Assembly (NCBI GenBank): GCA_964647565.1
Contig: CAZYIM010000019.1
Span: forward strand, 31,155 to 51,522
Source of the DNA: an uncultured Methanosarcinales archaeon
GTDB lineage: Archaea; Nanobdellota; Nanobdellia; Woesearchaeales; CAZYIM01
Direction of reading: 5' to 3'
DNA length: 20,368 bases
Each line of letters opens with the position of its first letter. Positions within the stretch are counted from its first letter, which is position 1. Below the pieces are notes generated by a model. It was not told the DNA's origin. It did not search any database and saw only the letters and a list, made by a program, of their open reading frames with translations. Made by a program: the position numbers and the translations under genes. Positions 1,833-17,932 of the stretch are shown here, piece after piece.

Positions 1833-2474
1833 ATGAGAATCCTAACATTAGAAATGCTATCTCCAGAGGACCAATGTGTTGATCTGAACGGTCCAAATAT
1901 GGATCCGACAGCATATCCTGGCCAGGACTCTGTTGTGTTTAGAGACAATCAAATCAATAAGGCCGTGCATGTTTATCAGAACCATATAGCCTATGAACAG
2001 ATATTAAAATATGCACAACATGTCAATATTGCAAAAGCATCATTCGAAAAACATCCGTTCATAGAGAAAATAGAATTCGAGAAGAAGAGTTATGATGTCA
2101 TAGTCGGCATAAATCCTGTGGAAGAAGTGGGCGAAAAATTATTTGAAATGCAAGGAAATAGAACCAGAAGAGCATATACATTAAGCCCGTTTATAGAAGG
2201 ATCCTCTTTATGTTGGCCAAATCAAGCTAACAATGATGAACAGTTTGCTGTCGCAAAATGTTTTGACATGTTATTTTACGACAGGATTGATAATGCGCTT
2301 TATTCTCAAACGAATATTAACGGAATAGACATCAATCCCGTCAATGTCAAGTATGCAATCGACAAGGATCAACAAAAAATATCTCTAACAATCACTGATC
2401 TTGCAAAGAATATCGGAGATGTTGGATTAGATTTTAAGAATATAGATTTTTTATTTGGAATTAAAAAAGGTTGA
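1833..2474 (+). CDS. Hypothetical protein with protein-kinase-like motifs
   Basis: Start moved to ATG 1833 (TTTATAAA at 1803-1810). Motifs in order: PGQDSVVF, KAVHVY, SPFIEGSSL, GIDINPVNV, ITDLA. Confidence 0.6.
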   Translation: MRILTLEMLSPEDQCVDLNGPNMDPTAYPGQDSVVFRDNQINKAVHVYQNHIAYEQILKYAQHVNIAKASFEKHPFIEKIEFEKKSYDVIVGINPVEEVGEKLFEMQGNRTRRAYTLSPFIEGSSLCWPNQANNDEQFAVAKCFDMLFYDRIDNALYSQTNINGIDINPVNVKYAIDKDQQKISLTITDLAKNIGDVGLDFKNIDFLFGIKKG

Positions 2475-2521
2475 TATTTCAAAAAACAACCTTTAAAAGA
2501 GCAACTGATTTCTTTATCATC

Positions 2522-3480
2522 ATGAACTTCCAAGACTTAAAAACTGTTGAAAAGGCTGACTTTTACCTAGATGTGGCGTTTAAGCAGGCCAATAACAGGG
2601 CTTCTGTACTCAGATCTAGTCTGAAAAGTCTTAACAGGCTTGAAAAATCTAAGAGAATTGAGTTGGCACGTATTGAAAAGATCAATGGCGTATTGATCAA
2701 GCATATGGACAATATAATCAAGTCATTTCCGAACATCGATAATTTGGCAGAGTTCTACATTGAGCTGGTCAAGATAACCCTGGAATATAGTGAGCTGAAG
2801 AAGTCCTTAGGTGCTGTGAATTGGGCTAAAAAGACAATCGCAGACATCTTCAGAAAATATCATTCCAAGATAAGGGGTACAAGAGATTATCAGAGGGTAG
2901 AAAGGAGTTCTCTGGCAGGATCTCCTCTGTTATGAAGCAGATCAACAAGAATCTGACGTTTCTTGAAGAATGCAGAAAGATCATGAAAAGCTATCCTGCT
3001 GTTAAGACAGGTATGTTCACAGTGGCCATTGCAGGCTTTCCGAATGTCGGTAAAACAACTCTTTTGACCAAGCTCACCTCTTCAAAAGCAGAAATCCGCG
3101 AGTATGCATTCACCACCAAGACTCTGAACTTGGGCTATTTTGAACAAGATTTCCAGAAAATCCAGTTTATCGATACCCCTGGCACCTTAAACAGGTTCAA
3201 TAAGATGAATGATATCGAGAAGATGGCATACCTGGCAATAAAGTACCAAACAGATGTAATTGTTTATATCTTTGATCTTACAGAGACATATCCTATTGAA
3301 GAACAAAAACAACTGCTCAAAACACTTGAGGATTTCGACAAGCCTATCATCATTTACCTTAGCAAGACGGATATTGTTGATAAAAAAGTTTTAGCTACTT
3401 TTAGAAAATCAGTCAAGAATACAATAGTTGATATAGCTGTCTTAAAAAAGAAGATAATTAAAGAATCTGAAGAAGATTAA
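2522..3480 (+). pseudogene. NOG1-family (nucleolar GTP-binding protein-like) GTPase, split by a frameshift near 2896-2902
   Basis: Helical N-terminal domain MNFQDLKTVEKADFYLDVAF in one frame. RKEFSGRISSVMKQI, G1 GFPNVGKT, G2 YAFTT, G3 DTPG and G4 SKTD are in the next frame. May be an intact gene with a sequence error. Confidence 0.8.
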
Positions 3481-5523: not shown

Positions 5524-6162
5524 TTAATGGAACGTTGGCTTGGTATAAGCTGCGTCATTATTAAGGGTCACAGCCTTCTCAAGATCCTTGTGAGGATAAT
5601 CACGCGAAGAATGGTTGTTATCTAAGTAAACTGGAGCTTCAAGATATGTATGGCATTTTCTAAGTGTTTCGAACTGTTCTGCTCTTCTTTGCTTTTGAGG
5701 TTGCTCCATCGTATATTCTTTCTCAGTACCATGCAATACCACAAATTTATCGTAATTACTGCTTCCCTTCACATTCTTCATATCCCACCCAGTCTCCTGA
5801 AGAATACACGCTTTAGTCAGTGCAAGCATGGTATTTTCTGCTACCTGAATAACATCCTGACTCCTCGGATTCTTATTCAGATCATAGAGTTTTGTTGTTG
5901 TAAAATCAAGATCTTTTAGCTTTTTCTTCACACCTTTATCCTGTTTACCCACTTCTTTTACTCTTTTTGGCGACATATGACTTGCGTAGTTCACATACTC
6001 GTCGGTCTCATACTCCTTTCCGCTGATTTCAGTGAATAATCCAAGAATATGTCCAATCATATCGTTATGAACAAAGATTTCCCTAAGATTTCCAGATGCC
6101 CTTACCTCATCCACAGTGTCCTCGCTAGAGTCTTGGTTTGCTCCGATATAAAATATTGCCAC
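5524..6162 (-). CDS. Hypothetical protein
   Basis: 212-aa ORF, GTG start preceded by GAGGTGG SD, BRE-TATA near 6221-6236 and T-tracts downstream. Confidence 0.8.
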   Translation of the reverse strand: MAIFYIGANQDSSEDTVDEVRASGNLREIFVHNDMIGHILGLFTEISGKEYETDEYVNYASHMSPKRVKEVGKQDKGVKKKLKDLDFTTTKLYDLNKNPRSQDVIQVAENTMLALTKACILQETGWDMKNVKGSSNYDKFVVLHGTEKEYTMEQPQKQRRAEQFETLRKCHTYLEAPVYLDNNHSSRDYPHKDLEKAVTLNNDAAYTKPTFH

Positions 6163-6239
6163 TTTCCCACCTCTTTTTTGATTAAATATCTCAAATATGC
6201 TATTATTATTGATTCTGATCTTTATAAATGTTTCGTTTT

Positions 6240-6259
6240 TTAGTACTGTTCAGTAGTAA
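6240..6259. promoter_or_regulatory. Palindromic operator-like motif, copy a
   Basis: TTAGTA-CTGTTCAG-TAGTAA (one mismatch to consensus), directly upstream of the minus-strand AAAACGAAACATTTATAAA BRE-TATA. Confidence 0.55.
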
Positions 6260-6309
6260 AATTACAATGAAGAATACTAAAAAAACAGAAAAATATCATA
6301 AAAGAAAGA

Positions 6310-7257
6310 TCAAAATGGACAAAAAATCATCACATGTTCTTTTGTCATAGTAGAGATATCAAAGTCAACATATTGTTTCTTGAATTCCTCGCGAAATCCA
6401 TCAATAATAGACTTCAACTCACGACCACTCTTAACATGAATCTCAATAGTAAGATCGTATTTCCCAAGTAACTCCAGTGCAAACAAGCAACTATTAGTGT
6501 TGTCAAAATATTCTATCACTTTATGCCTTATTGCTTGGTTAATAAGCGATATATTGATCTGGATAAATTCCAATCCCAGTTTGTCAAAGTTCGGAGCAGT
6601 AACATAGCCTAAAACTATCTTATCTTTCTTTAATTTCCTCAGCCTATAAGCTATTGTTTTACAGTCAATTCCTGATTTTTTAGATATTTCCAACAAAGGC
6701 ATACGCGCATTCCCCGATATTAATTTCAGAATCTTTCCATCCACTTGATGAAGCTCATATGATCCTAAAGAATACGGATAGTGCAAGTCAATAGTCTGTT
6801 CTTGATAAAAGAATTTCTGGTTAAGCCTTCTTGTAGTCAGCACTGTGTGTATGTACTTCTCGTTTACAAGATGACCATGATTTTCCATGAATTGCGTCAT
6901 GAGCCCGTACATCTCCTCAGCACTCTTAACCATTAGAAGCAAGATACAGTCATAATATCCTGAAACACTACCTAAATAGGCTGTCTTGGGGTTCTGCTTA
7001 AAATATTCGATAACTTCTGCTTCTTCTTCGGGTGTTGCATTTAATTTAAGGTAAAGCTTGTAGTAATAGAATCCTAGTTTCGATGTATTGAACACAGCAT
7101 AATACCCCTTAATAAACTTGTTTTGCAAAAGCCTTCTGATCCTAAAAGCAATTGTCTCTTTTGATTTGGAGAATTTCTTGGCCAGAGCAGATGCACTAAC
7201 CCTAGCATTCAGATCAAGTTCATACATAATTCGGCTATCTAATAAATCTAAAGCCAT
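6310..7257 (-). CDS. Lrp/AsnC-family transcriptional regulator, tandem double-domain type
   Basis: Two wHTH+RAM units: LDSRIMYELDLNARVSASALAK...GYYDCIL and DGKILKLISGNARMPLLEISK...GKYDLTI. Start taken as ATG 7257. Confidence 0.93.
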   Translation of the reverse strand: MALDLLDSRIMYELDLNARVSASALAKKFSKSKETIAFRIRRLLQNKFIKGYYAVFNTSKLGFYYYKLYLKLNATPEEEAEVIEYFKQNPKTAYLGSVSGYYDCILLLMVKSAEEMYGLMTQFMENHGHLVNEKYIHTVLTTRRLNQKFFYQEQTIDLHYPYSLGSYELHQVDGKILKLISGNARMPLLEISKKSGIDCKTIAYRLRKLKKDKIVLGYVTAPNFDKLGLEFIQINISLINQAIRHKVIEYFDNTNSCLFALELLGKYDLTIEIHVKSGRELKSIIDGFREEFKKQYVDFDISTMTKEHVMIFCPF

Positions 7258-7342
7258 TAATTTACACAATAGTAAAACAATTATTTAAATTTTTCCTTTT
7301 TGTGTAATCATTTAATAGAAAAATTAATATATCACATCACAT

Positions 7343-7362
7343 TCACCATCAAATAATAGTAA
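7343..7362. promoter_or_regulatory. Palindromic operator-like motif, copy b
   Basis: TCACCA-TCAAATAA-TAGTAA upstream of the 7393 gene. Confidence 0.45.
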
Positions 7363-7392
7363 CAAAATTTAAGATTAAAAGAGGTGAAAAAA

Positions 7393-7749
7393 ATGATAAA
7401 AACATACATCATATCCAAAAAATTAGAAGTAGCAATATGGGACTTGGAAGGCAAAACACACAATCAATGCCAGATATTAGATAGTAATGAAAAACCCATC
7501 GGCTATATTGATGAAAAACTAACAGGATGGGATTGGGGACCCCCTACAAACGACCTGGTAAAAAAAGTAGCTCAGAAGTTTCCATACAAAGAAGGCGATA
7601 TTGTAACAACAGTAAATAGCGATAAAAAGTATGGAGGGAGTGGAAATAGTCTTGCAGAGGTCTATTCTGGAACGATAGAATCATTTAGTGGACTAACCAT
7701 CAGGAGATTCAAAGAAGCCCTGATTAAATACTCAGAGAAACAAGAATGA
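7393..7749 (+). CDS. Hypothetical protein, divergent from the Lrp gene
   Basis: GAGGTGA SD at 7381-7387 places the start at ATG 7393; 118 aa. Confidence 0.8.
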   Translation: MIKTYIISKKLEVAIWDLEGKTHNQCQILDSNEKPIGYIDEKLTGWDWGPPTNDLVKKVAQKFPYKEGDIVTTVNSDKKYGGSGNSLAEVYSGTIESFSGLTIRRFKEALIKYSEKQE

Positions 7750-7920
7750 TCCCTACATGACTGAACAGAGAAGAATTCAAAGCCATTAAATGTAAGAAGT
7801 TGATTCTTGCGAATAATATATGAGGAGATTCTTCTTTTTTATTCTCCCTTAATTTACTGTGTGTAACTAGGTGCTCAGGGTGTAGGAAGCATACGAAAAT
7901 TTGCTTTTGGCTCATATCAT

Positions 7921-8189
7921 AAAAATTTGTCGAAAGTGTTCTACCCCACCTAAACGCTTAACAATCAAAGATTGTTGACGTGTTAGAAATACAAATTATT
8001 TCAAACAGGGAGGGGTATGAACGAACACTTTCTTTAACAGGCGAATTTTTAGGACCCTTAGAAATCAAAGATTTCGGGGGTCCTAAAAATGCTAAAAGCA
8101 TTTCTATGATACCCAAAAATTTCGACCTGAAGATCAGGGTATTAAACCCACGACCAAAAAATTCCAGTCGAAATTATTTAGTATAAGAA
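7921..8189 (+). ncRNA. Candidate structured non-coding RNA or hairpin-rich repeat element (may extend left to about 7750)
   Basis: Perfect stems of 13 bp (8045-8057/8078-8090), 10 bp (7932-7941/8023-8032) and 9 bp (8118-8126/8167-8175). G-U pairs favour the + strand. Confidence 0.5.
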
Positions 8190-8293
8190 AGAGTACCCTT
8201 ACGTCAAACCACACCCACTTCATAATAGGCCATTTAAGCTAACACAGATTATGCTCAATTTTTCTGGGCAAAAGAATAGGAAGAACAAAAAAA

Positions 8294-8333
8294 TTACCAC
8301 CATTTAATAGTAAAAAACCGAAAGATTTAAATA
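8294..8333 (+). promoter_or_regulatory. Operator-like motif copy c plus BRE-TATA
   Basis: TTACCA-CCATTTAA-TAGTAA-AAAACCGAAAGATTTAAATA. 8307-8333 matches 8917-8943 at 26/27. Confidence 0.7.
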
Positions 8334-8355
8334 TGGGCAACACCTATAAATAGCT

Positions 8356-8850
8356 ATGGATTACAAGCATTTAACAGCTGAACGTAAAGAACTTATAGAT
8401 AAAAGAGTAGGCATTCTAATAGAAAAATACACTAAAGATTCATCCATAAATTGGGAGCAGATTGCTGTAGACAACTCAATTATTTATCTGCAAGATAACC
8501 GTTTTTTAGTGGGTATTGCAGGAAGGACTTCTGGCGGAAATTATGTTGTCGGAGTTGAAAACAATGCAAACACAAAGGACGGACGGCTAACAAGAGGCCA
8601 CGAATTTTGCCACCAACTTCTAGGCCACACAAGATCTGACATCGAAGACCCGGCACAGGAGGATGAAGCAAATTATTTTGCAGAACAAATAACAGGAACG
8701 AGTAACACAGGTTGTTCAAGTTGGATTAATGCTTTCACAATAGTTTGTAAGCATCCAAAAAGAGCGTATATTTCTGCATTCGGCACCTCTGAAGAATTCA
8801 AAAAGTACAATAATAAAATATTGGAGACTTTAGTACCTGACCTGGATTAA
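8356..8850 (+). CDS. ImmA/IrrE-family (DUF955-like) metallopeptidase
   Basis: RLTRGHEFCHQLLGH (HExxH) followed by EDEANYFA. Confidence 0.85.
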   Translation: MDYKHLTAERKELIDKRVGILIEKYTKDSSINWEQIAVDNSIIYLQDNRFLVGIAGRTSGGNYVVGVENNANTKDGRLTRGHEFCHQLLGHTRSDIEDPAQEDEANYFAEQITGTSNTGCSSWINAFTIVCKHPKRAYISAFGTSEEFKKYNNKILETLVPDLD

Positions 8851-8903
8851 GTAAGAAAGCAAGCAGTTAGTTCTAACCTTTAATTCCTCCTTTAATCATT
8901 TTT

Positions 8904-8943
8904 TTACTACTACCCCATAGTAAAAAATCGAAAGATTTAAATA
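8904..8943 (+). promoter_or_regulatory. Operator-like motif copy d plus BRE-TATA
   Basis: TTACTA-CTACCCCA-TAGTAA-AAAATCGAAAGATTTAAATA. The arms extend to a perfect 10-bp IR. Confidence 0.7.
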
Positions 8944-8966
8944 CTAATTCACTAATATAATCAAAG

Positions 8967-9512
8967 GTGAGAAATTTGAGCACAAACATAACAAAGAAAA
9001 CACTGGAATTCCTAGCTGATGAATCTGAAAACCTCAAGCAATGTGAAGTATATCCTGATAGTAAAAAAGATTTTATATTCTCAGAATATGAAAACACCCC
9101 TGTTGATTTCAACATATATGTCGGTGACAAGTTCAATATCCTTTCTGAAGAAGAAAATCCCGAGGGTGTAAGAATAATCGATAATATATTCAAGCTGTAT
9201 ACTGAATGTGAATATAGCGAAGACCAAAGAATGCAAACAGTAGTTTTCAAGCAGATGAAGAATAAGGCAAAAAGAACCCCTAATAACTTATTTTGGGATG
9301 CACCAAACTGGAGACTGAGTGCCAGTCCACATAGGGATGATAATTCTGATATAGAAGGTTTCACAATATCCCTTTTCCATAATTACGAGGGATATCCAAC
9401 AAAAAAAACCATAGATGGTGCAGGTCATCAGTTAAAATACAGGCAGCTCATTAATAAGATCGAAAAATACTTAATTCAGTCTAATGTCGAGTATTCTATT
9501 CAAACAAACTAA
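8967..9512 (+). CDS. Hypothetical protein
   Basis: 181-aa ORF, GTG start about 24 nt after the TATA. Confidence 0.75.
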   Translation: MRNLSTNITKKTLEFLADESENLKQCEVYPDSKKDFIFSEYENTPVDFNIYVGDKFNILSEEENPEGVRIIDNIFKLYTECEYSEDQRMQTVVFKQMKNKAKRTPNNLFWDAPNWRLSASPHRDDNSDIEGFTISLFHNYEGYPTKKTIDGAGHQLKYRQLINKIEKYLIQSNVEYSIQTN

Positions 9513-9648
9513 TTTTGACAGACTGAAAAAGAGAAATACACAATAAACCGTTTTACTCTCAAGATAAGCTATTTTTGTACTGTTTTATCTGTTCTTTACG
9601 CTGCTTATCCCTGGTTTTAGCAGACTTGATTTCAAGGTCGTTGAATAG

Positions 9649-9915
9649 TTAATTAACCAGGTGATCAAATTTGGGTCTTAGGTTTGATCTACATTTGATC
9701 TCAGAATCAGGTTGAAGACCATATTTTTTCATAAGCTTGTCATACTTCTTCGTATATTTGTCAACATATGTATTTATTGTTTCCGGACTAAGTGTTTTTT
9801 TTCGTTTTTGTATAGGCTGAGATTCATGTATAGTTGTAATATATTCCAAAACCTCTCCAGCAGTATAACTCTCGCCAAATAGCTGGATCCTGACTTCGAA
9901 ATCTATGTGATCCAT
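9649..9915 (-). CDS. Small hypothetical protein
   Basis: 88-aa ORF with minus-strand TTTATATA about 25 nt upstream of the ATG. Confidence 0.65.
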   Translation of the reverse strand: MDHIDFEVRIQLFGESYTAGEVLEYITTIHESQPIQKRKKTLSPETINTYVDKYTKKYDKLMKKYGLQPDSEIKCRSNLRPKFDHLVN

Positions 9916-10024
9916 ACTATAAAAAAGATCACAGAGTTGTATATAAAATTTCCGTTAGTATCGGCACCATTTAAAGAATACAAGTAGTTAGTTCACTTTT
10001 TACTAAGCGCACTTTAACTTTTTT

Positions 10025-10322
10025 TCAGTCTTTGTTAGCAAATTCTTTTTTTATGATTTTTTCAACACCATAACTCCTTTTTAGATTATCAATCAAATCA
10101 ATATAGTCATCGGAGACTGAATAGAAAACCTTATTGTCAGTTGTCAGGGAAATGCTTGAATCCACAATCCCAGGAACACCCCCTTTTTGATTGAGAAAAA
10201 TCTTTACAATGGTTCTGCCACCTTCCTGAAGAAACTGATAGCTGCAACCCACTAATTGTTTTTTTGAATAATTCGTAAAAAGGCGCCAATATTTCTTTTG
10301 TTCATCTACAAAGCGGCTTCAT
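10025..10322 (-). CDS. Small hypothetical protein, copy 2 (same out-of-frame start as copy 1; the in-frame GTG at 10252 gives 75 aa)
   Basis: Paralog of 4915-5212 with the stop at the equivalent position. Confidence 0.6.
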
Positions 10323-10364
10323 GCAAGAAAGAAATGAACAAAATTATAAAAATGTTTTAGTTTA
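10048..10364. repeat. Direct repeat copy 2
   Basis: Matches 4938-5254 at offset 5110. Confidence 0.97.
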
Positions 10365-10374
10365 GCTTTGTAAA

Positions 10375-12039
10375 TTAGTTCTTAGTCATCAAATCTATGA
10401 CCAATCCATACATATCTGATGGTTTTTCAATATAGATGACTTCTTTTCCACATTTCTCAAGATCCTTGGCTGTTCCTGAGCGGCCAGTGGAAAGGAATGC
10501 AAAATAATGGGGTTCGATCAGATTCAGAAAACTGTCACGTATTTTCTTCCAGTTAAATATCCCACCATCAGAGACCAGGATCACTGAACAAGGAGATCTT
10601 GTCAGCTGCTTTTTAAGAACAGCCATATCAAGTACAGTATTCCAACCGCAGTACTCGTCAAGGGTAGTTTTTCTAATATCCAGAAGGTTTTCATATCCAA
10701 CCCAACCACTTGATTTAGTCCGATCTGAAAAACGGGTAAGATTCCAGGATACTGCTGGTGCCAGATTCATTTTCTTAGCATGATTGATAAGTCCGTAAAG
10801 AGCCAGTGCAGCATAGTGATAGTTGCAGTCTTCGCCCCAGGGCAAAGCGGGATTTTCCTTGCCAGAAAACATAGATCCTGAATCATCAAGTATCATAGCC
10901 ACATCTGTAAAACCAGGCATCTTCTTGTTATAAGCAATAGGTATGCCGTCATGGAAACGCCTATTTGCAAATGTTAAAGGCCCTATTGCCAGAGGCGAGT
11001 CCTTATCAAAGAAAACCCTGGACAAATCTATCTTATGAATATCATGCGTTGTAAAGTCAAACGGTTCAGGTCCATAATTCACAAGGGGAAACGACATAGA
11101 TGCCTTGTCAGAATATGACTTGACAGCAATATCACTTGCCAACTCCTGATAGAGTGCGTCCAGAAAATCTATCCTGCTGACACTTGCCGGAGGTCCCTGA
11201 CCTTTTTCAAACCTGTCCTTAGCCATCTTGCCAAGATCGCTTGAAGGCCCTCTTGAGATCACAAACGAAAGCTTTGGCAGTTTCACATCTTTGTGGTATT
11301 TTAGGGCTTCCTTGGTAAAAAGATAAGCATTCTTTTTCCAGGATCGTGGATTGGAGAGTCTCTTAGCGTTGCTTTTAAGATCCTTCAACCCAATCTCATT
11401 TGAAAGTTTCTTAACACTGATCCTGGTCTTCATAAAGGGTTTTACAAGCTTGTAATCTATATCTGTACCCCAGCTCTTCATATTCATCTTCACAAAGAAC
11501 TCAAAAAGTTTTGGATACTCACCTTTAGCCCCCTGGTCATAGAAAAAAAGAGTCTGGCCAGAATAGGGAGTACATAGATATTTGTTAGATGTGTTCAATA
11601 CAAAATCTGAGAACATGTTTCTAAAATAACCTGCAAGACTCTGGCCAGTAAAAACCGGCTTTAAGGGATCTTTCCCAGCTTCCGTAATAGCCTTAGCAGT
11701 TGCTTCTTCAATCATGAATCTGTAATCACTATTACAAGAGCAACCCATGTTTTCACTCCAGTGTCTGCATTCATGCCTTAATGTATCGCTTAATATTATC
11801 TCAAGAGCAGCATCAGGATCCTGCCCATTGGCTATAAGAAAATTCCGGATCTTCTTGTCTTTATGAGGTTTCCATTTCTTATCAATCTGAAAATCAACAT
11901 CCCATATCTCAGTATCAATGCATGCCATCAGATGGCCGTAGCCAGTCATGTCAAGATGGCTCATCGAGAGCTTGCCACCTATCAAACCGAATTCATTGTT
12001 CTTGATATCCTGCAATCTGGCTAATAAGTCCATTTTCAC
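10375..12039 (-). CDS. vWA-domain protein with an N-terminal HExxH metallopeptidase-like domain
   Basis: LRHECRH and NMFSDFVLN at the N-terminus. MIDAS ILDDSGSM ... NTVLD ... VSDG at the C-terminus. Start overlaps the MoxR stop (GTGA); ATG 12033 is an alternative. Confidence 0.88.
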   Translation of the reverse strand: MKMDLLARLQDIKNNEFGLIGGKLSMSHLDMTGYGHLMACIDTEIWDVDFQIDKKWKPHKDKKIRNFLIANGQDPDAALEIILSDTLRHECRHWSENMGCSCNSDYRFMIEEATAKAITEAGKDPLKPVFTGQSLAGYFRNMFSDFVLNTSNKYLCTPYSGQTLFFYDQGAKGEYPKLFEFFVKMNMKSWGTDIDYKLVKPFMKTRISVKKLSNEIGLKDLKSNAKRLSNPRSWKKNAYLFTKEALKYHKDVKLPKLSFVISRGPSSDLGKMAKDRFEKGQGPPASVSRIDFLDALYQELASDIAVKSYSDKASMSFPLVNYGPEPFDFTTHDIHKIDLSRVFFDKDSPLAIGPLTFANRRFHDGIPIAYNKKMPGFTDVAMILDDSGSMFSGKENPALPWGEDCNYHYAALALYGLINHAKKMNLAPAVSWNLTRFSDRTKSSGWVGYENLLDIRKTTLDEYCGWNTVLDMAVLKKQLTRSPCSVILVSDGGIFNWKKIRDSFLNLIEPHYFAFLSTGRSGTAKDLEKCGKEVIYIEKPSDMYGLVIDLMTKN

Positions 12040-13298
12040 AAGAACATCGAGATCACTCCGCCAACATCTGTCTTGTTCTTCTTGTAAAGAGAGCCATTCT
12101 CAGAGGCGTAAGTGTTGATATGATCCAGGATTCTGCCATAGAATGCCCAGTGATCCTTAAATGAGTCAAGAGTCTTCTTCCTAAGATGACCTTTCATGGA
12201 CTCCTCAAGGCCTGTCACAAGACCATCCTTCTTAGCCATTATGTCTCCCAGAAATTGGGATTTTAGGGTCTGCGCAGCCAACAGTTCATTTGAGTTATGG
12301 TTCTTGACAACCCACTGGGTGTTAAGCAAGCCAGAATAAGGGATGGTAAACATGGCAGCTTCCATCACATCATTATAATTCACATTCTTCTCTTCCCCTG
12401 TCTTGGCGTCTGTAATTGCCCTAAAAGCAGCAGCAAGAGACTTGGTGGCTGTTATTACTCTTGGAGGTGAAGGCGAGATATAGCCACAAGCCTTACCAAG
12501 TCTGTTGCAACCGTGGCATTTGCTAGGAATTGACTTGATCACTGTAAGCTTAGATTTATTATCTGATCTTTGGCAGTAGTCAAGAGCTTCCATGATGTAT
12601 AGCAATGCAACATACCCGTCAAGATCAAACTGCTTTGATTTCAACAATCCATTAATTTCCTGGATCTTGTCAGATAGGTCTTTTTTGGAATGATCTTTTG
12701 GACGCGGATTAAAGGCGTCTTTTACAATACTTAAGTTATCCAGGGTCTTTGTCGGGTAGTTGTTCATGTCCAGGGTCAGATGGAATCGTTCTTTTAGAGC
12801 GTCATCCATTGCAAACGTGCCGTTATAGTTGGTGCCTATGTTTGCAGTTGCAAGCACAACATGGAATCCCTTTCCCAAGATCACCTTCCTGCCCTTGAAA
12901 TTGATATAACCATCACATACATTGAAGATCTCGTTTTGCACAAGCGCAGGCGCCCTGTTTATCTCGTCAACCTCAGTCATCAAATTGTCAATGTGGCCAT
13001 TCAAAGTCATCTCCATGGATTCAAGCTTAAAATCCTCATACAGATCCTTGATCCTCAGGTCAGGATGAGCCCTGATCGCTGTTCCCTGGCTATTGAAGAA
13101 CTGGTTGTTTACACTTCTCATCAGCTGGGTCTTGCCCCTACCCTTCTCTCCAAGTAAAAGCACATTTAGGTTTGAGATAAGGCCTGCCTTGATGACATCC
13201 TCAACAAGAAGAGAAACATCAAGATTGACAACAGATGTTGTGTTGATGTAGCCTTCAACACCTGGCAGTGTTTTTATCAAGGTGGTCAGCTTACTCAT
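12036..13298 (-). CDS. MoxR-family AAA+ ATPase
   Basis: Walker A GEKGRGKT, Walker B VDEINRA, sensor ATAN, Arg finger DALKERF. ATGA overlap with the upstream gene. Confidence 0.93.
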   Translation of the reverse strand: MSKLTTLIKTLPGVEGYINTTSVVNLDVSLLVEDVIKAGLISNLNVLLLGEKGRGKTQLMRSVNNQFFNSQGTAIRAHPDLRIKDLYEDFKLESMEMTLNGHIDNLMTEVDEINRAPALVQNEIFNVCDGYINFKGRKVILGKGFHVVLATANIGTNYNGTFAMDDALKERFHLTLDMNNYPTKTLDNLSIVKDAFNPRPKDHSKKDLSDKIQEINGLLKSKQFDLDGYVALLYIMEALDYCQRSDNKSKLTVIKSIPSKCHGCNRLGKACGYISPSPPRVITATKSLAAAFRAITDAKTGEEKNVNYNDVMEAAMFTIPYSGLLNTQWVVKNHNSNELLAAQTLKSQFLGDIMAKKDGLVTGLEESMKGHLRKKTLDSFKDHWAFYGRILDHINTYASENGSLYKKNKTDVGGVISMFL

Positions 13299-14344
13299 TT
13301 GAATGCCTCCTTGTAGAGGTTTCTTGCGTATTTGCCAACCTCTCCTTTCAGGCCTTGCAGCTCAGCCATCTTCATGTTTAAATCCTGAACAGATTCAGAT
13401 AATTTTATAGGTGTTTGCGAATGTTCAGGTATGTTCTTCTTGAGTCTCTTAACAGAATTTGCCAGATTGCTTGCTAGATTATGCGCTGAATTTAATTCAT
13501 TATATGCTATCCTGAGTTTTTCAAGTTCTGTGTTGAAAGGGAATCTCCCAGACGGATAAATAGTCACGTCTTCAGGTGTCTTGTTCAGGAAATCAACTAT
13601 TTCCTGGTGGTATTTCTTGTTGGGAAATGAACCTTTACCCTTGAGCCAGAATATTTTTTCACCCTTGAGGTCAAAAGCAGAGCTATCTTCAATGGTTTTT
13701 GTCTGGATAAGCAGCGGTTTATCAATCTCATATATTTCAGGATCAAAATATCTATAGAGAATGTGGCGGTTTGCTTGTTGCTTTATCTTTTTTTCTAACA
13801 TCTTATCCTCAGCATCAACAACTTTCCGTTGATATAGAAGCCAAAGGTCTTGATCTGAAAAACTAATATTGGCTCGATACTCTCGATACCATCCATCAAC
13901 AGTGCAACCACCCTCTCTGGTTTCAAAAAATGGCATCAGATTCTTATATTCAAAATCCAGATTAGAAAAATCATCTGTCTGCACTTGTTTCAACTCTGTG
14001 AACTCCTGGATCCGATCAACAGCCAGATCTGCATTCTTATCAAGCAGGGATCTTAATGACTTAAGGTCCTGCATCATGCTCTTGACAACAGGAAAGCCTG
14101 AAGCCGCCATATATACTGTCTCTTTTTGCGATAGGGTCTCATCCATGAAAAACTTGACATGTTTTAGGAGATTATGCAAATAACTAACGCCAAACTCATC
14201 TATGGTCTGCATGAGTCTGCCCATATAATCATCGATCTTTCCTGCTGGGATGCCAATAAGATTCTTACCTCTTTTCCGCGACACCGCAGTAGGCTTTATA
14301 TCGAATGTTTTTTCCTTAATTGTCTCTCCAAAATATTGTGTCAT
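13295..14344 (-). CDS. Hypothetical protein, paralog B of the MoxR-operon leader genes
   Basis: 349 aa, GGAGGTGA SD. Shares FGE.I.E, IKPT, SGFP, RY.DP.IY, ELEKLR.AY and AR.LYKE with 14421-15431. Confidence 0.9.
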   Translation of the reverse strand: MTQYFGETIKEKTFDIKPTAVSRKRGKNLIGIPAGKIDDYMGRLMQTIDEFGVSYLHNLLKHVKFFMDETLSQKETVYMAASGFPVVKSMMQDLKSLRSLLDKNADLAVDRIQEFTELKQVQTDDFSNLDFEYKNLMPFFETREGGCTVDGWYREYRANISFSDQDLWLLYQRKVVDAEDKMLEKKIKQQANRHILYRYFDPEIYEIDKPLLIQTKTIEDSSAFDLKGEKIFWLKGKGSFPNKKYHQEIVDFLNKTPEDVTIYPSGRFPFNTELEKLRIAYNELNSAHNLASNLANSVKRLKKNIPEHSQTPIKLSESVQDLNMKMAELQGLKGEVGKYARNLYKEAFK

Positions 14345-14352
14345 ACTGAATC

Positions 14353-14400
14353 ACCTCCAAGTATACGAGGAGGTTCCAGCAGTTTACTGCTCAGAACCTC
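14353..14400 (-). promoter_or_regulatory. Intergenic alternative hairpins overlapping the SD of paralog B
   Basis: GAGGTTC/GAACCTC plus AGCAGT/ACTGCT stem, versus an ACCTCC/GGAGGT stem. Confidence 0.5.
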
Positions 14401-14420
14401 TTTATTAAATATTCAAAATG

Positions 14421-15431
14421 TTACAAGTTAACAGTCTCCTTGTAGAGCTTTCTTGCAAGATCTCCCATCGGGCCTTTTAGTTTCTGCAATTCTTCAATGG
14501 ACTCGTTGATATCTTGTATTGTTTCAGAAATCTTGCTCTGGTTTGTGCTATAGTCCATTATGCTTGCTCTTGTAGAATTTACTTTTCCAACCAAATCATA
14601 TGCAAATCTAAGTTTCTCTAATTCTGCCTTGATAGGAATTGGCCAGTTTTGTTTATTTACAGATTCAGTTGCAGTCTGGGAAATATATTCCGCTATTGCT
14701 TTTGCAAACATCGGATCACGTTTTTTATTATGATGATGAATAAAGAAAAAACGATTCCCCCAAAAGGACATATTAAAATTATCTTTAGGATCATCTGTTA
14801 AGATCACTAATGATTCTTCCAGGTCATAAATCATCGGATCAAGATATCTGATGAATGTCGTGGTTTCCTCATTTTGGCGTTCTTTTAATTTATTCTTAGA
14901 TTTTGCAGTAAGAATTTTCTTTTCAGATGTAAACCATTCTTTTTTGTTAGCGAATATATTTCGATATGTAAATTCCACTTCTGATTGATTTTTTTCTTCA
15001 TTTACTCTTGCTAAACGTTCAAGACTTTCTCTCTTAGGATCCAGCATGTCAGGGTATTGGCTATCTACAATCTGAAGGTCTATCCAGCTCTTGGTCCTTT
15101 CAAAACAATCACTTTTGCGGTTATCCTGTATAGACATCATCGACTCTATATCCCTAAGCATGTTTGAGGCTGGCGGAAAGCCTGATGGAGTAATGTAAAG
15201 CCCTGTGTCTTTGGCTCTTGTGTGCTTGAAATAAGATATGAAAAAACCGAGCAGTGAATCAACTATTCCGGGCGAGTCTGATCCTCTAAGCGTTGAATAC
15301 ATCTTTTCGAGATATGATTCTGCATTTTTAGGCTCTATTAGTATCAGGTCTTTGCCTGTTTTTTTTAATGCTGAAGTCGGCTTGATATTTGTTTTTCTTT
15401 CTTCTATTTTTTCTCCGAATAAGGTAGTCAT
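14421..15431 (-). CDS. Hypothetical protein, paralog A, first gene of the MoxR/vWA operon
   Basis: 336 aa, GAGGTGA SD, TATA at 15467-15474. Confidence 0.9.
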   Translation of the reverse strand: MTTLFGEKIEERKTNIKPTSALKKTGKDLILIEPKNAESYLEKMYSTLRGSDSPGIVDSLLGFFISYFKHTRAKDTGLYITPSGFPPASNMLRDIESMMSIQDNRKSDCFERTKSWIDLQIVDSQYPDMLDPKRESLERLARVNEEKNQSEVEFTYRNIFANKKEWFTSEKKILTAKSKNKLKERQNEETTTFIRYLDPMIYDLEESLVILTDDPKDNFNMSFWGNRFFFIHHHNKKRDPMFAKAIAEYISQTATESVNKQNWPIPIKAELEKLRFAYDLVGKVNSTRASIMDYSTNQSKISETIQDINESIEELQKLKGPMGDLARKLYKETVNL

Positions 15432-15442
15432 AATTTGTCACC

Positions 15443-15500
15443 TCACTACTTTATAGTGGTAATTACTATATAAATTTAACCTCCCACCTAGTAGGGGGTT
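15443..15500. promoter_or_regulatory. Divergent promoter region with operator-like motif copy e and a second imperfect palindrome
   Basis: TCACTA-CTTTATAG-TGGTAA (15443-15462) and AACCTCCCAC-CTA-GTAGGGGGTT (15478-15500). Confidence 0.6.
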
Positions 15501-15540: not shown

Positions 15541-16311
15541 ATGATACCAAAAATACTGACACAGTTAGGTCTAAACGAGTCAGAGATCAAGGTATATTTT
15601 GCGCTCCTGGAACTCGAATCAAGCACAGTCGGGCCCATAGTTGACAAGGCCAAGATATCAGATTCAAAGATCTACAACATACTTGAAAAGCTCAAAGAAA
15701 AAGGGCTGATCAGTTTTGTTATCAAAGGTAAATACAAGCATTTCCAGGCAACAGATCCTGAAAACCTGATAAGAATACTCGAAGAAAAAGAGGAAGAGAT
15801 CAAGCAGCAAAAAGAGAAGATCCAAAAAGAGATAATTCCTATGATAGTGCAGAGAAGAAAGATGACAGAGGAAAAGCAGGAAGCCTGGGTCTTTGAAGGT
15901 ATCAATGGGATGAAAAGCGTATACCAGGCTGTCTTAAACACCATGAAAAAGGGTGAGAGTTACAGGGTGTTCCACATCATGGACGAGCCTCTTAAGAAAA
16001 AACAGATATCCCTGTTCTACAAGAACTATCATCTGCAAAGATCTGAAAAAGGTATTTTTGTGAAGTTTATTGCACACATCAAGGAGAAAAAGACTGTGCT
16101 GGAATACTTCAACCAGCCTTTCTCAGAACTAAGGTTTACTGACAGGATGTTTCCAGTCGGCCTGCTGATATTCAAGGGTTATGTCCTGACCACAGTGTGG
16201 GGTGATAATCCTACTGCCTTTTTGATAAAATCACAAAGAAACTATGAGTATTATGTGAAATATTTCGATGATTTATGGGGGACGGCAAAAAAGGGTGTGA
16301 AGAATAAATAA
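15541..16311 (+). CDS. TrmB-family transcriptional regulator
   Basis: LGLNESEIKVYFALL...SKIYNILEKLKEKGLI wHTH, FEGINGMKS, and C-terminal YFDDLW. Confidence 0.93.
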   Translation: MIPKILTQLGLNESEIKVYFALLELESSTVGPIVDKAKISDSKIYNILEKLKEKGLISFVIKGKYKHFQATDPENLIRILEEKEEEIKQQKEKIQKEIIPMIVQRRKMTEEKQEAWVFEGINGMKSVYQAVLNTMKKGESYRVFHIMDEPLKKKQISLFYKNYHLQRSEKGIFVKFIAHIKEKKTVLEYFNQPFSELRFTDRMFPVGLLIFKGYVLTTVWGDNPTAFLIKSQRNYEYYVKYFDDLWGTAKKGVKNK

Positions 16312-16430: not shown

Positions 16431-17102
16431 CTATTTAATCGCATCATATAACACTGCGAAAGCATAATCTAATTCGCCATATATGAATCTTGATTCAACT
16501 TGTTTAAATCCTGATTGAAATAAAGCATCGCCATATACATGGATCGGTTGATGAAAATCCCGAATACCAACATCATAATAATCACCATCTTTTCCTTTTA
16601 ATTCGACAATAAACGGTATATCTTCCTTTTCGTAATCATATTCTTCTTCAAATATTAATCTGTAACCAGGAAATTCCATACGATATCTTTCAATAGGATT
16701 AGTTAATGTAAAGATCAAATGCCCCTCAGGTATAAGATTTTGATATATGTTTTTGAATGCTGCAATCAAGCTTTCTTTTCTAAATTCTGAAAAGACATAG
16801 TTTGCAACCACAGCATCAACAGGCTCTATCATTATTTTTTCAAGATCAGATTTAACAGTTACATCACCCACTTCCACCTGCACTCCACGTTTTTTGGCTA
16901 ATGCAACCATTGATGGATTAAAATCCATCCCACACACCCCTATATTCCCTAACTGGCTAAGGAAATGACCATCTCCACAGCCAACCTCCAAGACATTTTT
17001 AGGATCTGCCTTTATGACTGCAGAGTACAGCTCAGCTTCTGCAAGGTTTTTTAGTTTATGATTGTATGCATCAAGAGCATAAAATCTTTCAGGGTCTTCC
17101 AT
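16431..17102 (-). CDS. Class I SAM-dependent methyltransferase
   Basis: VLEVGCGDG motif I, GMDFNPSMV, GDV, DAVVANYV and LIPEGHLIF. Start ATG 17102 (GTG 17111 is an alternative). Confidence 0.92.
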   Translation of the reverse strand: MEDPERFYALDAYNHKLKNLAEAELYSAVIKADPKNVLEVGCGDGHFLSQLGNIGVCGMDFNPSMVALAKKRGVQVEVGDVTVKSDLEKIMIEPVDAVVANYVFSEFRKESLIAAFKNIYQNLIPEGHLIFTLTNPIERYRMEFPGYRLIFEEEYDYEKEDIPFIVELKGKDGDYYDVGIRDFHQPIHVYGDALFQSGFKQVESRFIYGELDYAFAVLYDAIK

Positions 17103-17206
17103 AAATATCACTTTTTAATTACTTAACGATAGTCACTAACAGTATAATAATTATCGTAGTCCTTTTTAGGGCAACATTTATAAATTCAAAGAACATCATC
17201 TATATT

Positions 17207-17932
17207 ATGGACGCCAGTTCATTAGAAAAAGCAGGATTGACGCATAACGAAGCAAAGACATACATAGCACTATGCCAGGCAGGAAGCATCACTGCTGGCA
17301 AACTCTCAAAAAGAGTCGACATTCACAGGTCCAGAATGTATGAGGCATTAGATAGACTCGTAAGAATGGGTTTGGTGCAATTTCTAAACATCAATAATAT
17401 CAAGAACTATAAAGCCGAACCACCAATCAAAATCATCGACATGTTAAAAGAAAAGCAAGAGAATGTTGAAAAAATCATACCTAAATTAACATCCTTACAG
17501 CAGCAACCTGAGATCATCCAAAAAATAAGCGGATATCAAGGAATAACTGGCGTTAAAACACTGCTTAAAGAAACCCTGAACACATCATCCTATGTTGTAT
17601 ACGGAGCGCCACAAAGCTCAATCGATCTCTTAGGAGAAACATTTTGGAAGAATTATAACCAGAAAATAAATGACAAGAAAATCAGTACTAGAATGATATT
17701 TGATGAAGCATTGCGTAGTTGGTCTGCACATGTAAAAGATATCAACAAATCCACAAAAATCAAATATCTTAGCAAGCATTTCGATAACCTGACCGAAACC
17801 TTTGTTTTTGATAACAAAGTCATCATCATAACTTGGAGTGCTCAACCCCTAGGAGTCCTGATAACTGAGAAGACCATTGCCAAATCTTATGAACAATTCT
17901 TCAACATGCTTTGGCAACAAGCCAAGGCATAA
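17207..17932 (+). CDS. TrmB-family transcriptional regulator
   Basis: AGLTHNEAKTYIALC...SRMYEALDRLVRMGLV, YQGITGVKT and FFNMLWQQA. TTTATAAA about 22 nt upstream. Confidence 0.93.
   Translation: MDASSLEKAGLTHNEAKTYIALCQAGSITAGKLSKRVDIHRSRMYEALDRLVRMGLVQFLNINNIKNYKAEPPIKIIDMLKEKQENVEKIIPKLTSLQQQPEIIQKISGYQGITGVKTLLKETLNTSSYVVYGAPQSSIDLLGETFWKNYNQKINDKKISTRMIFDEALRSWSAHVKDINKSTKIKYLSKHFDNLTETFVFDNKVIIITWSAQPLGVLITEKTIAKSYEQFFNMLWQQAKA

Follow-up and report, generated by a model that had tools for sequence, protein, structure and literature searches.

Pairs of a MoxR-class ATPase and a protein with a von Willebrand factor A (vWA) domain are known as chaperones and, more recently, also as the cores of predicted conflict systems. 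We analyzed a stretch of 20,368 nucleotides from an uncultured archaeon (contig CAZYIM010000019.1, positions 31,155 to 51,522; hereafter, the window) that carries such a pair in a four-gene operon on its minus strand (10375-15431), together with genes for two paralogous orphan proteins, A and B. Comparison with related loci shows that the ATPase and its partner, a two-domain adaptor that we call PV, are a conserved, co-inherited core pair, and that this pair takes up different lineage-specific third components, which in four related archaeal loci are hypermutated by diversity-generating retroelements (DGRs). The reading that we favor, tentatively and at a little short of an even call, is that the operon is a self-contained MoxR-vWA recognition or conflict device in which A and B serve as "germline-fixed" receptors, rather than a housekeeping chaperone for cofactor insertion.

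The accessible part of Kaur et al. 2020 (PMC7159879) describes ternary conflict systems of the MoxR-vWA kind (among them VMAP and iSTAND) in which an N-terminal vWA domain is followed by variable C-terminal effectors, and it proposes that a peptide caught by the vWA domain is afterward let go by the MoxR ATPase in a changed form. DGR-coupled forms of these systems are reported from multicellular bacteria in the available portion of Doré et al. 2024 (PMC10907252). For the chaperones, a general mode of MoxR/VWA binding, derived from NorQ-NorD, is put forward in the accessible text of Kahle et al. 2023 (PMC9976466). The targets of nanoarchaeal DGRs are described as orphans in the available part of Paul et al. 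2015 (PMC4372165), and the accessible portions of that paper and of Wu et al. 2018 (PMC5758913) call most of the genes between DGR targets hypothetical and do not name them as a MoxR-vWA pair. The words ATPase, vWA, and von Willebrand do not appear in the main text of Roux et al. 2021 (PMC8144416). Our full-text searches turned up no paper connecting a MoxR-vWA pair with the DGRs of DPANN archaea; such searches do not cover supplements, so an earlier description is possible. The ATPase-PV core is a recurrent family that was previously unannotated.

Judged against the accessible parts of PMC7159879 and PMC10907252, the operon and its relatives share with the ternary conflict systems a MoxR ATPase, a vWA protein, a variable third component, and cassette-like mobility, and the relatives share with the DGR-coupled forms the presence of DGR-diversified binding proteins in the same operon. 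They differ from those systems in three respects: the predicted vWA domain of PV is C-terminal, lies behind a domain with an HExxH region, and has nothing after it; the DGR targets of the relatives are separate small proteins, not fused to the vWA domain; and the organisms that carry them are DPANN archaea plus a few bacteria, as opposed to multicellular bacteria. An earlier note on this DNA had pointed to predicted conflict systems among MoxR-vWA-third-component operons; a match to the VMAP ternary architecture fails on the first of these points. VMAP, iSTAND, trypsin, caspase, TIR, and EAD domains were not detected in Pfam and PADLOC scans, the presence of VMAP models in those libraries being unconfirmed.

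The chaperone pairs resemble the operon in other ways. NorQ/NorD, CbbQ/CbbO, and CobS/CobT, the latter two as they are commonly described, likewise place an AAA_5/AAA_3-type ATPase beside an adaptor of about 550-650 aa with a C-terminal vWA domain and metal ion-dependent adhesion site (MIDAS). Unlike NorD, CbbO, and CobT, PV has no membership in a Pfam or NCBIfam family and no client gene nearby: nor, cbb (rubisco), or cob genes were found neither in the window nor among 30 neighboring open reading frames (ORFs) scanned from 11 related loci. The HExxH/Cys/Asp site on the N-terminal domain of PV and the extra paralogous genes also set the operon apart from all three pairs.

The core pair and its third components

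In a scan of one genome per species (185,579 species genomes), 266 pattern matches led to 17 confirmed loci, a number limited by the search pattern. Thirteen of the PV relatives are archaeal, from Woesearchaeota, Pacearchaeota, Nanoarchaeota, and bins labeled Methanosarcinales (mostly DPANN), and four are bacterial, from Aerophobetes, a Clostridia bin, and an unclassified bacterium. The ATPase gene lies 5′ of PV on the same strand in 12 of the 17 loci, which is to say in 12 of the 12 that are informative; the other five have less than 1.2 kb of upstream sequence or, in the case of L017, are filled to the locus edge by other genes. The two genes are therefore a conserved core pair. The genes beyond this core differ in every locus examined, and include those for ribosomal L10, HisRS, MetK, Fic, sugar ABC transporters, MNT-type nucleotidyltransferases, and a DEAD helicase; the module thus acts like a self-contained cassette.

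What the pair keeps beside it varies with lineage. Same-strand ORFs of 250-316 aa, or fragments of such ORFs at contig ends, abut PV in 12 of the 13 archaeal loci, the exception (L016) being a 2-kb contig. The usual arrangement has a single accessory ORF between the ATPase and PV and another one after PV, but arrays also occur: four ORFs before PV and at least two after it in L001, three before it in L012, and nine in tandem before it in L017. Most archaeal relatives carry paralogous pairs or arrays of a size similar to A and B within the operon. The accessory ORFs form four families (C1, C17, C15, and C12) with no Pfam match, and hhalign comparisons among these families, A/B, and a C-terminal extension found on the bacterial ATPases all gave probabilities below 2%.

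Reverse-transcriptase (RT) ORFs are present in L002, L005, L008, and L015, with a fragment in L009. In each of the first four loci, a template repeat (TR) beside the RT gene matches the 3′ ends of both genes that flank PV, giving two variable repeats (VRs) per TR. The mismatches fall at TR adenines in 10/10, 8/9, 8/9, 8/9, 13/13, 13/13, 13/13, and 14/14 cases, or 87/90 in total. An RT, a TR, and two VRs with adenine-specific mismatches are the signature of a DGR, and the two VR-bearing orphan targets are like those of the DPANN/Nanoarchaeota cassettes in the accessible parts of PMC4372165 and PMC5758913. The order of the cassette is ATPase, target 1, PV, target 2, TR, RT, except that in L005 the RT and TR are upstream on the other strand. 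The complete cassettes span L002 3699-9404, L005 4201-10624, L008 5-5389, and L015 5970-12066. This setting suggests that the relatives of the window's pair are part of a molecular recognition machine.

Some features of individual loci may be added here. PV of L002 is split into two ORFs (5641-6759 and 6844-7368), and the DGR parts of that locus are apparently intact. Two TR/VR-like pairs in L012 (7/9 mismatches at A) were rejected as evidence of a DGR because they sit at the 5′ ends of paralogs arranged in tandem, and no RT is close by. Parts of toxin-antitoxin type adjoin two cassettes, in the form of Fic/DOC and Polbeta/MNT-type nucleotidyltransferase genes (L006 8351-9613 and 9770-10378; L002 2868-3425). 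A profile of 19 DGR-target-like proteins found one chance match in the PDB, which leaves a C-type-lectin fold unsupported. In a PADLOC scan of 29 related proteins, the strong matches were RT models on the RT ORFs, and weak, sub-threshold matches fell on two accessory ORFs and the ATPase of L001.

Two accessory families with different globular parts, the targets of L003-L008 and the repeat proteins of L017, have in common an N-terminal handle, T-x-E-[EDQ]-[LI]-[ILV], followed by a Pro-rich linker. Seventeen accessory ORFs have the handle motif, as does 1 other ORF among 550; as the pattern was chosen post hoc, this count is a lead and not a test. The nine tandem paralogs of L017 (249-7789; 266-294 aa), which lie directly 5′ of a partial PV gene, have the N-terminal handle MTINKGKTNEELV in identical form and contain internal repeats, each about 40 residues long (LCSHNGxLY...), that may form a beta-propeller-like domain; two of these paralogs were scanned against Pfam, with no match.

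We built a tree of PV with 17 rows, from which L002 (split PV), L004 (a short contig whose PV had the same score as that of L003), and L017 (partial) were left out. The window groups with the database protein P0003, a PV homolog at 42% identity (support 100/100), and these two are sister to four bacterial two-gene systems (100/98). A separate 11-row archaeal clade holds all of the DGR-linked loci that were placed (L002 having been left out). The window's ATPase is 36-38% identical to its bacterial relatives versus 25-31% to the other archaeal ones, and the tree and the identities agree in putting the window's pair with the bacterial branch. The earlier note's description of the operon as possibly a new archaeal type is thus too narrow, as the pair has its closest relatives among two-gene systems of bacteria.

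The ATPase and the PV adaptor

The ATPase gene (12036-13298, minus strand) encodes a MoxR-class AAA+ protein of 420 aa (AAA_3/AAA_5, midasin-like). It matches the Pfam families AAA_3 (35.2 bits against a cut-off of 27; 1.3e-8) and AAA_5 (25.1 bits against a cut-off of 22; 1.9e-5), and the best match of a profile built from 11 ATPase relatives is to midasin AAA domains (7e-11). All 11 relatives retain G50, G53, G55, K56, and T57 of the Walker A motif (GEKGRGKT, aa 50-57; 13128-13151, minus strand), D111 and E112 of the Walker B motif (E-V-D-E, aa 109-112; 12963-12974, minus strand), and N153 and R171, which from the familiar MoxR motifs we take to be sensor 1 and the Arg finger. The motifs that had been called intact from the window alone are therefore invariant across the family. 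Four cysteines in the lid/C-terminal region (C242, C261, C264, and C271, including a CxxC; 12480-12575), which may form a zinc knuckle, are shared with the bacterial clade only and do not occur in the DGR-linked archaeal clade. The ATPase also weakly matches the CobS-type family phrog_249. Single-sequence searches of the PDB with the ATPase and with PV found no match.

PV (10375-12039, minus strand) is a two-domain adaptor of 554 aa, or 552 aa if its start is the ATG at 12033. It has no match in Pfam (E<=1), NCBIfam, PADLOC, or PHROG families; the 17 family members gave 0/17 matches to vWA or peptidase models at E<=0.1; and a PV profile searched against PDB sequences gave chance matches only. 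An AlphaFold2 (AF2) model made from a 17-sequence alignment has a predicted local distance difference test score (pLDDT) of 79 and a predicted template modeling score (pTM) of 0.73, with residues ~380-554 mostly near a pLDDT of 90. In this model, PV has an N-terminal alpha/beta domain with the HExxH motif, a disordered linker, and a C-terminal vWA domain (aa 376-554; 10378-10914, minus strand). Foldseek aligns the C-terminal ~180 residues of the model to vWA domains in the PDB with probability 1.0 and target-normalized TM-scores (TMt) of 0.5-0.67; the matches include the LapA vWFA domain, integrin I domains, TFIIH p44, and NorD in NorQD complexes (9qhd_G, 9qhe_G, and 9qh8_G).

The MIDAS residues D385-x-S387-x-S389 (DDSGS, aa 385-389; nt 10873-10887), T468, and D491 are invariant in 17/17 relatives, and a conserved beta-hairpin, PWGxxxxYH (aa 400-408), comes after the DDSGS stretch. 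The vWA domain proposed for PV is recognizable in the model by its fold and is invisible to sequence profiles; fold and MIDAS bear the proposal out, and a profile match does not.

The N-terminal domain of PV (aa 1-305; 11125-12039, minus strand) is modeled as three strands and then helices, with HECRH (aa 89-93; nt 11761-11775) at the end of a helix that spans residues 75-94. The motif is present as the earlier reading of the window had it, but among the relatives of PV, HExxH is intact in 8/17, HGxxH replaces it in 5/17, and the four bacterial members have NQxxH. Only the second histidine, H93, is invariant, along with C100, D145, and N149, while the first His and the Glu vary; this conservation pattern gives the domain the look of a conserved metal site, and we consider such a site probable. 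We suspect a zincin-like fold, and peptidase chemistry is possible in the window's lineage. As the catalytic Glu is kept in only 8/17 relatives, a peptidase output is not a family trait, and the proposal that the fused metallopeptidase is the output of the system is weak, the more so because no peptidase profile matches.

A sequence family of similar architecture is DUF2201, in which an N-terminal domain (DUF2201_N, PF13203, "putative metallopeptidase domain") is joined to a "VWA-like" DUF2201 domain in proteins linked to MoxR. PV is like these proteins in the fusion of an HExxH-type N-terminal domain to a divergent vWA-like C-terminal domain. It is unlike them in being longer and in the degeneration of HExxH in 9/17 members, and hidden Markov models of PF13203 and PF09967 match neither PV (E<=1) nor any of the 17 relatives (E<=0.1). 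A language-model search of the ESM Atlas with the N-terminal domain of PV reached PF13203 DUF2201_N at 0.89, below the 0.9 line, and the top cluster in that search was 91% viral. In the fold searches with the whole PV model, all of the matches among the best 50 listed for each search were to vWA domains. Against predicted viral structures, the PV model aligned from end to end with phage proteins of the "VWFA" and "CobT-like" kinds, 430-700 aa long (best E 1.6e-7; rmsd high). In the model, this full-length match is to the layout of CobT/NorD-type adaptors.

These features bear on the possibility that the pair is a dedicated maturation or assembly chaperone, which inserts metal into or remodels one housekeeping client (A/B, for example as a coiled-coil assembly, or an unlinked protein) and has no role in recognition or conflict. 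The modeled layout of PV, in which a linker joins an N-terminal helical domain to a C-terminal vWA domain, is CobT/NorD-like; PV structurally matches NorD and, over its full length, the phage CobT-like proteins; the weak phrog_249 match of the ATPase is to a CobS-type family; and the invariance of H93, C100, and D145 points to a metal site rather than a protease. The chromosomal setting is ordinary, with ribosomal protein genes on either side, and the bacterial relatives have no third gene. Yet no client enzyme gene is conserved beside the pair in the loci examined, the embedding of archaeal pairs between DGR-hypermutated genes is unexpected for a housekeeping chaperone, and the pair is thinly and unevenly distributed (17 loci in the species genomes, within the limits of the search pattern). 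We regard the chaperone explanation as a serious contender, though on balance rather unlikely.

Operon layout and surroundings

The window has the G+C content (~37%) and gene content of an archaeal chromosome, with genes for ribosomal S6e, L10e, and L15e and for the NOG1 GTPase among those that flank the operon on its two sides. The operon consists of four consecutive co-oriented ORFs, in the order A, B, ATPase, PV, as the earlier note had described, and none of the four products contains a hydrophobic or transmembrane segment, so that all are predicted to be soluble. Shine-Dalgarno sequences precede A (GAGGTGA, 6 nt 5′ of the ATG), B (GGAGGTGA, 6 nt 5′ of the ATG), and the ATPase (AGGAGG, 7 nt 5′ of the ATG and located inside B). 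PV lacks one at canonical spacing. The stop codon of B overlaps the start codon of the ATPase in an ATGA, and there is no promoter-sized gap between B, the ATPase, and PV. A GTGA overlap between the ATPase and PV requires that PV start at the GTG at 12039; the database copy of PV, P0002, is 552 aa long, which puts the start at the ATG at 12033, 2 nt past the ATPase stop. The strong ribosome-binding sites and the translational coupling claimed for the operon thus stand for A, B, and the ATPase and for the ATGA, and do not extend to PV, whose coupling depends on the choice of start codon.

A and B are separated by a spacer of 76 nt that holds a 13-bp RNA hairpin (14370-14400, minus strand) just 5′ of the Shine-Dalgarno sequence of B. 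The hairpin has a minimum free energy of -22 kcal/mol (z = -2.7; 1/200 shuffles as stable) and could be a processing or attenuation element. Upstream of A, an intergenic region of 109 nt separates the operon from the divergent gene of a TrmB-family regulator (15541-16311, plus strand; 256 aa; Pfam TrmB 2.8e-17), which had also been predicted. This region contains TTTATATA (15467-15474), which, going by the archaeal TATA consensus, is presumably a TATA-like element. A promoter and terminator scan of the window did no better than on shuffled sequence, its sigma-70 model not being applicable to archaea, and Rfam and tRNA scans of the window found no match. In a scan of neighboring ORFs at 11 other loci, no TrmB gene was linked to the ATPase-PV pair.

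The next genes past the regulator encode a class I S-adenosylmethionine methyltransferase (16431-17111, minus strand) and, on the plus strand, another TrmB-family regulator (17207-17932), which puts two TrmB paralogs within 2.4 kb. The NOG1 GTPase (2471-3480) is present as two ORFs that overlap by 4 nt, one with the NOG1_N helical domain (2471-2935) and one with the GTPase and NOG1 domains (2932-3480); the gene is either truly split or interrupted by a frameshift. Downstream of PV, the stretch from 7300 to 10370 is gene-poor, with ~33% GC and small orphan ORFs only, and may be the remnant of an integrated element. It includes an ORF like the ImmA/IrrE-type M78 metalloproteases (8356-8850; HEFCH motif; Pfam 0.0025, phrog_87 1e-4) and a 75-aa ORF at 10252-10025, co-oriented with PV and 122 nt past its stop.

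That stretch and the M78-like gene would fit an origin of the operon as the remnant of a viral or mobile-element module, a CobS/CobT-like pair of the kind found in tailed phages with A and B as element-specific genes. So would the fold matches of PV to phage VWFA and CobT-like proteins, the 91% viral composition of the top Atlas cluster, and the cassette-like behavior of the module with its variable insertion sites. Against such an origin, tblastn searches with PV and the ATPase found no match in 50,697 phage records, those with PV and P0006 (the distant A/B homolog described below) found none in 72,556 plasmids, and the window contains no capsid, terminase, or integrase match among its ORFs and no tRNA or attachment-like repeat. 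We consider this origin very improbable.

A and B and the role of the operon

Gene A (14421-15431, minus strand) encodes a soluble orphan protein of 336 aa, and gene B (13295-14344, minus strand) one of 349 aa; both are ORF calls. The two align over their full length (28% identity, E=3e-41), in agreement with their earlier description as paralogs. Conservation between them is highest over roughly the first 30 residues, at the same end of the protein as the handle of the accessory families. A has a conserved N-terminal peptide, MTxxFGExIxE..IKPT, and a helical C-terminal region ending in LKGxxGxxARxLYKE. The absence of any assignable family for A and B, as first reported, was upheld in Pfam, NCBIfam, PADLOC, and PHROG. 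In a word-indexed search of 5.8 billion proteins and a HMMER search over 1.84 billion representatives, the only homologs were B, A in the form of a strain variant that is 99% identical (P0005), and P0006 (326 aa). The last is the sole distant homolog and has in common with A and B an N-terminal MTxLF, a GFP motif, and a C-terminal LKGxxGxxARxxY. An ESM Atlas search with B returned nothing usable, and the AF2 model of A, made from a 3-sequence alignment, is poor (pLDDT 44, pTM 0.30).

One view of these proteins is that A and B are unrelated passengers and that the functional unit is the ATPase and PV alone, as in bacteria. It has in its favor that A and B are absent from 17/17 related loci, that the bacterial sister clade is a two-gene system, that the 76 nt between A and B contain a stable hairpin, and that the G+C content of A is 0.358 versus 0.435 for the ATPase. 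The layout of the operon speaks the other way: the ATGA joins B to the ATPase, the Shine-Dalgarno sequence of the ATPase is inside B, all four genes are on one strand with no promoter-sized gap from B to PV, and in most archaeal relatives, too, the operon includes paralogous genes in pairs or arrays of about this size. The passenger explanation seems to us quite unlikely. A and B are a lineage-specific addition with a proposed role.

On the reading that we prefer, a recognition or conflict device, A and B would fill the third-component role in the window, probably as a heterodimer formed through their C-terminal helices. By analogy with NorQ-NorD and CbbQ-CbbO, a hexamer of the ATPase would dock on the vWA domain of PV, and the MIDAS of PV would grip an acidic side chain (a carboxylate) of the third component. 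A and B would dock through their conserved acidic N-terminal peptide, and ATP hydrolysis would then remodel or release A and B or whatever they have bound. The intact HExxH of the N-terminal domain of PV may add cleavage in the window's lineage. The coupling of B to the ATPase and the common strand of all four genes support the membership of A and B in the operon. Because the relatives place hypervariable binders in the same slot, and because all of the parts are cytoplasmic, a recognition or conflict role is favored over that of a housekeeping chaperone.

Several results weigh against this reading. No homolog of A or B occurs in any of the 17 related loci, hhalign comparisons of A/B with the DGR targets gave probabilities below 2%, and A and B are placed 5′ of the ATPase rather than flanking PV, so that it is their position in the operon that carries the proposed functional equivalence. 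Unlike the DPANN DGR cassettes, the window has no RT (RVT_1) among the ORFs scanned and no TR/VR-type repeat on either strand. The bacterial loci have no separate accessory gene beside the ATPase and PV; their ATPases (L010 86-2095; L011 6092-7900; L014 6077-7900) have a C-terminal extension of ~170 aa of no known family, which may replace the third component. The catalytic Glu of PV is not conserved across the family. Binding of A and B to PV or the ATPase is a prediction by analogy, and modeled complexes of PV and B, which scored 0.00 in both runs with the fold of the partner itself uncertain, count neither for nor against it. The window shows no defense-island context, and in PADLOC-DB v2, A and B matched 0 families and the ATPase and PV gave chance-level matches only (E>=0.012). 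Moreover, the well-studied MoxR-vWA pairs (NorQD, CbbQO, and CobST) are maturation chaperones and not sensors.

Seen together with the relatives, the central proposals of the earlier note come out in part. That A and B are clients or sensors gains indirect support from the DGR-diversified proteins in the equivalent slots, but the two are not a conserved third component. The operon matches no system in PADLOC, Pfam, NCBIfam, or PHROG, as expected of an undescribed ternary system, while its A/B part has no counterpart in 17/17 related loci; P0006 is the one distant homolog of A and B overall.

A more far-reaching proposal, which we think improbable but worth stating, is that the ATPase and PV are the engine of an unrecognized archaeal system, in which DGR-diversified binders dock through their N-terminal handle on a MoxR-vWA-(zincin-like) machine and of which the window is a DGR-free derivative with A and B as fixed receptors.

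If the chaperone explanation were correct, the finding would be a modest but new subfamily of MoxR systems. In either case, several DPANN DGR cassettes have PV placed between their two hypermutated targets, the function of which is a standing question. As a MIDAS adaptor with a probable metal-site domain and a midasin/MoxR-like ATPase for a partner, PV offers a testable biochemical partner for the DGR targets, and for the orphans A and B it offers a concrete hypothesis, that they dock on PV and are remodeled by the ATPase. If the more far-reaching proposal holds, the device would be a programmable, antibody-like sensor coupled to ATP-driven remodeling or proteolysis, and a MoxR-vWA device would be what most "orphan-target" DGRs in DPANN archaea supply, giving those DGRs a mechanistic tie to the ternary conflict systems known from multicellular bacteria.

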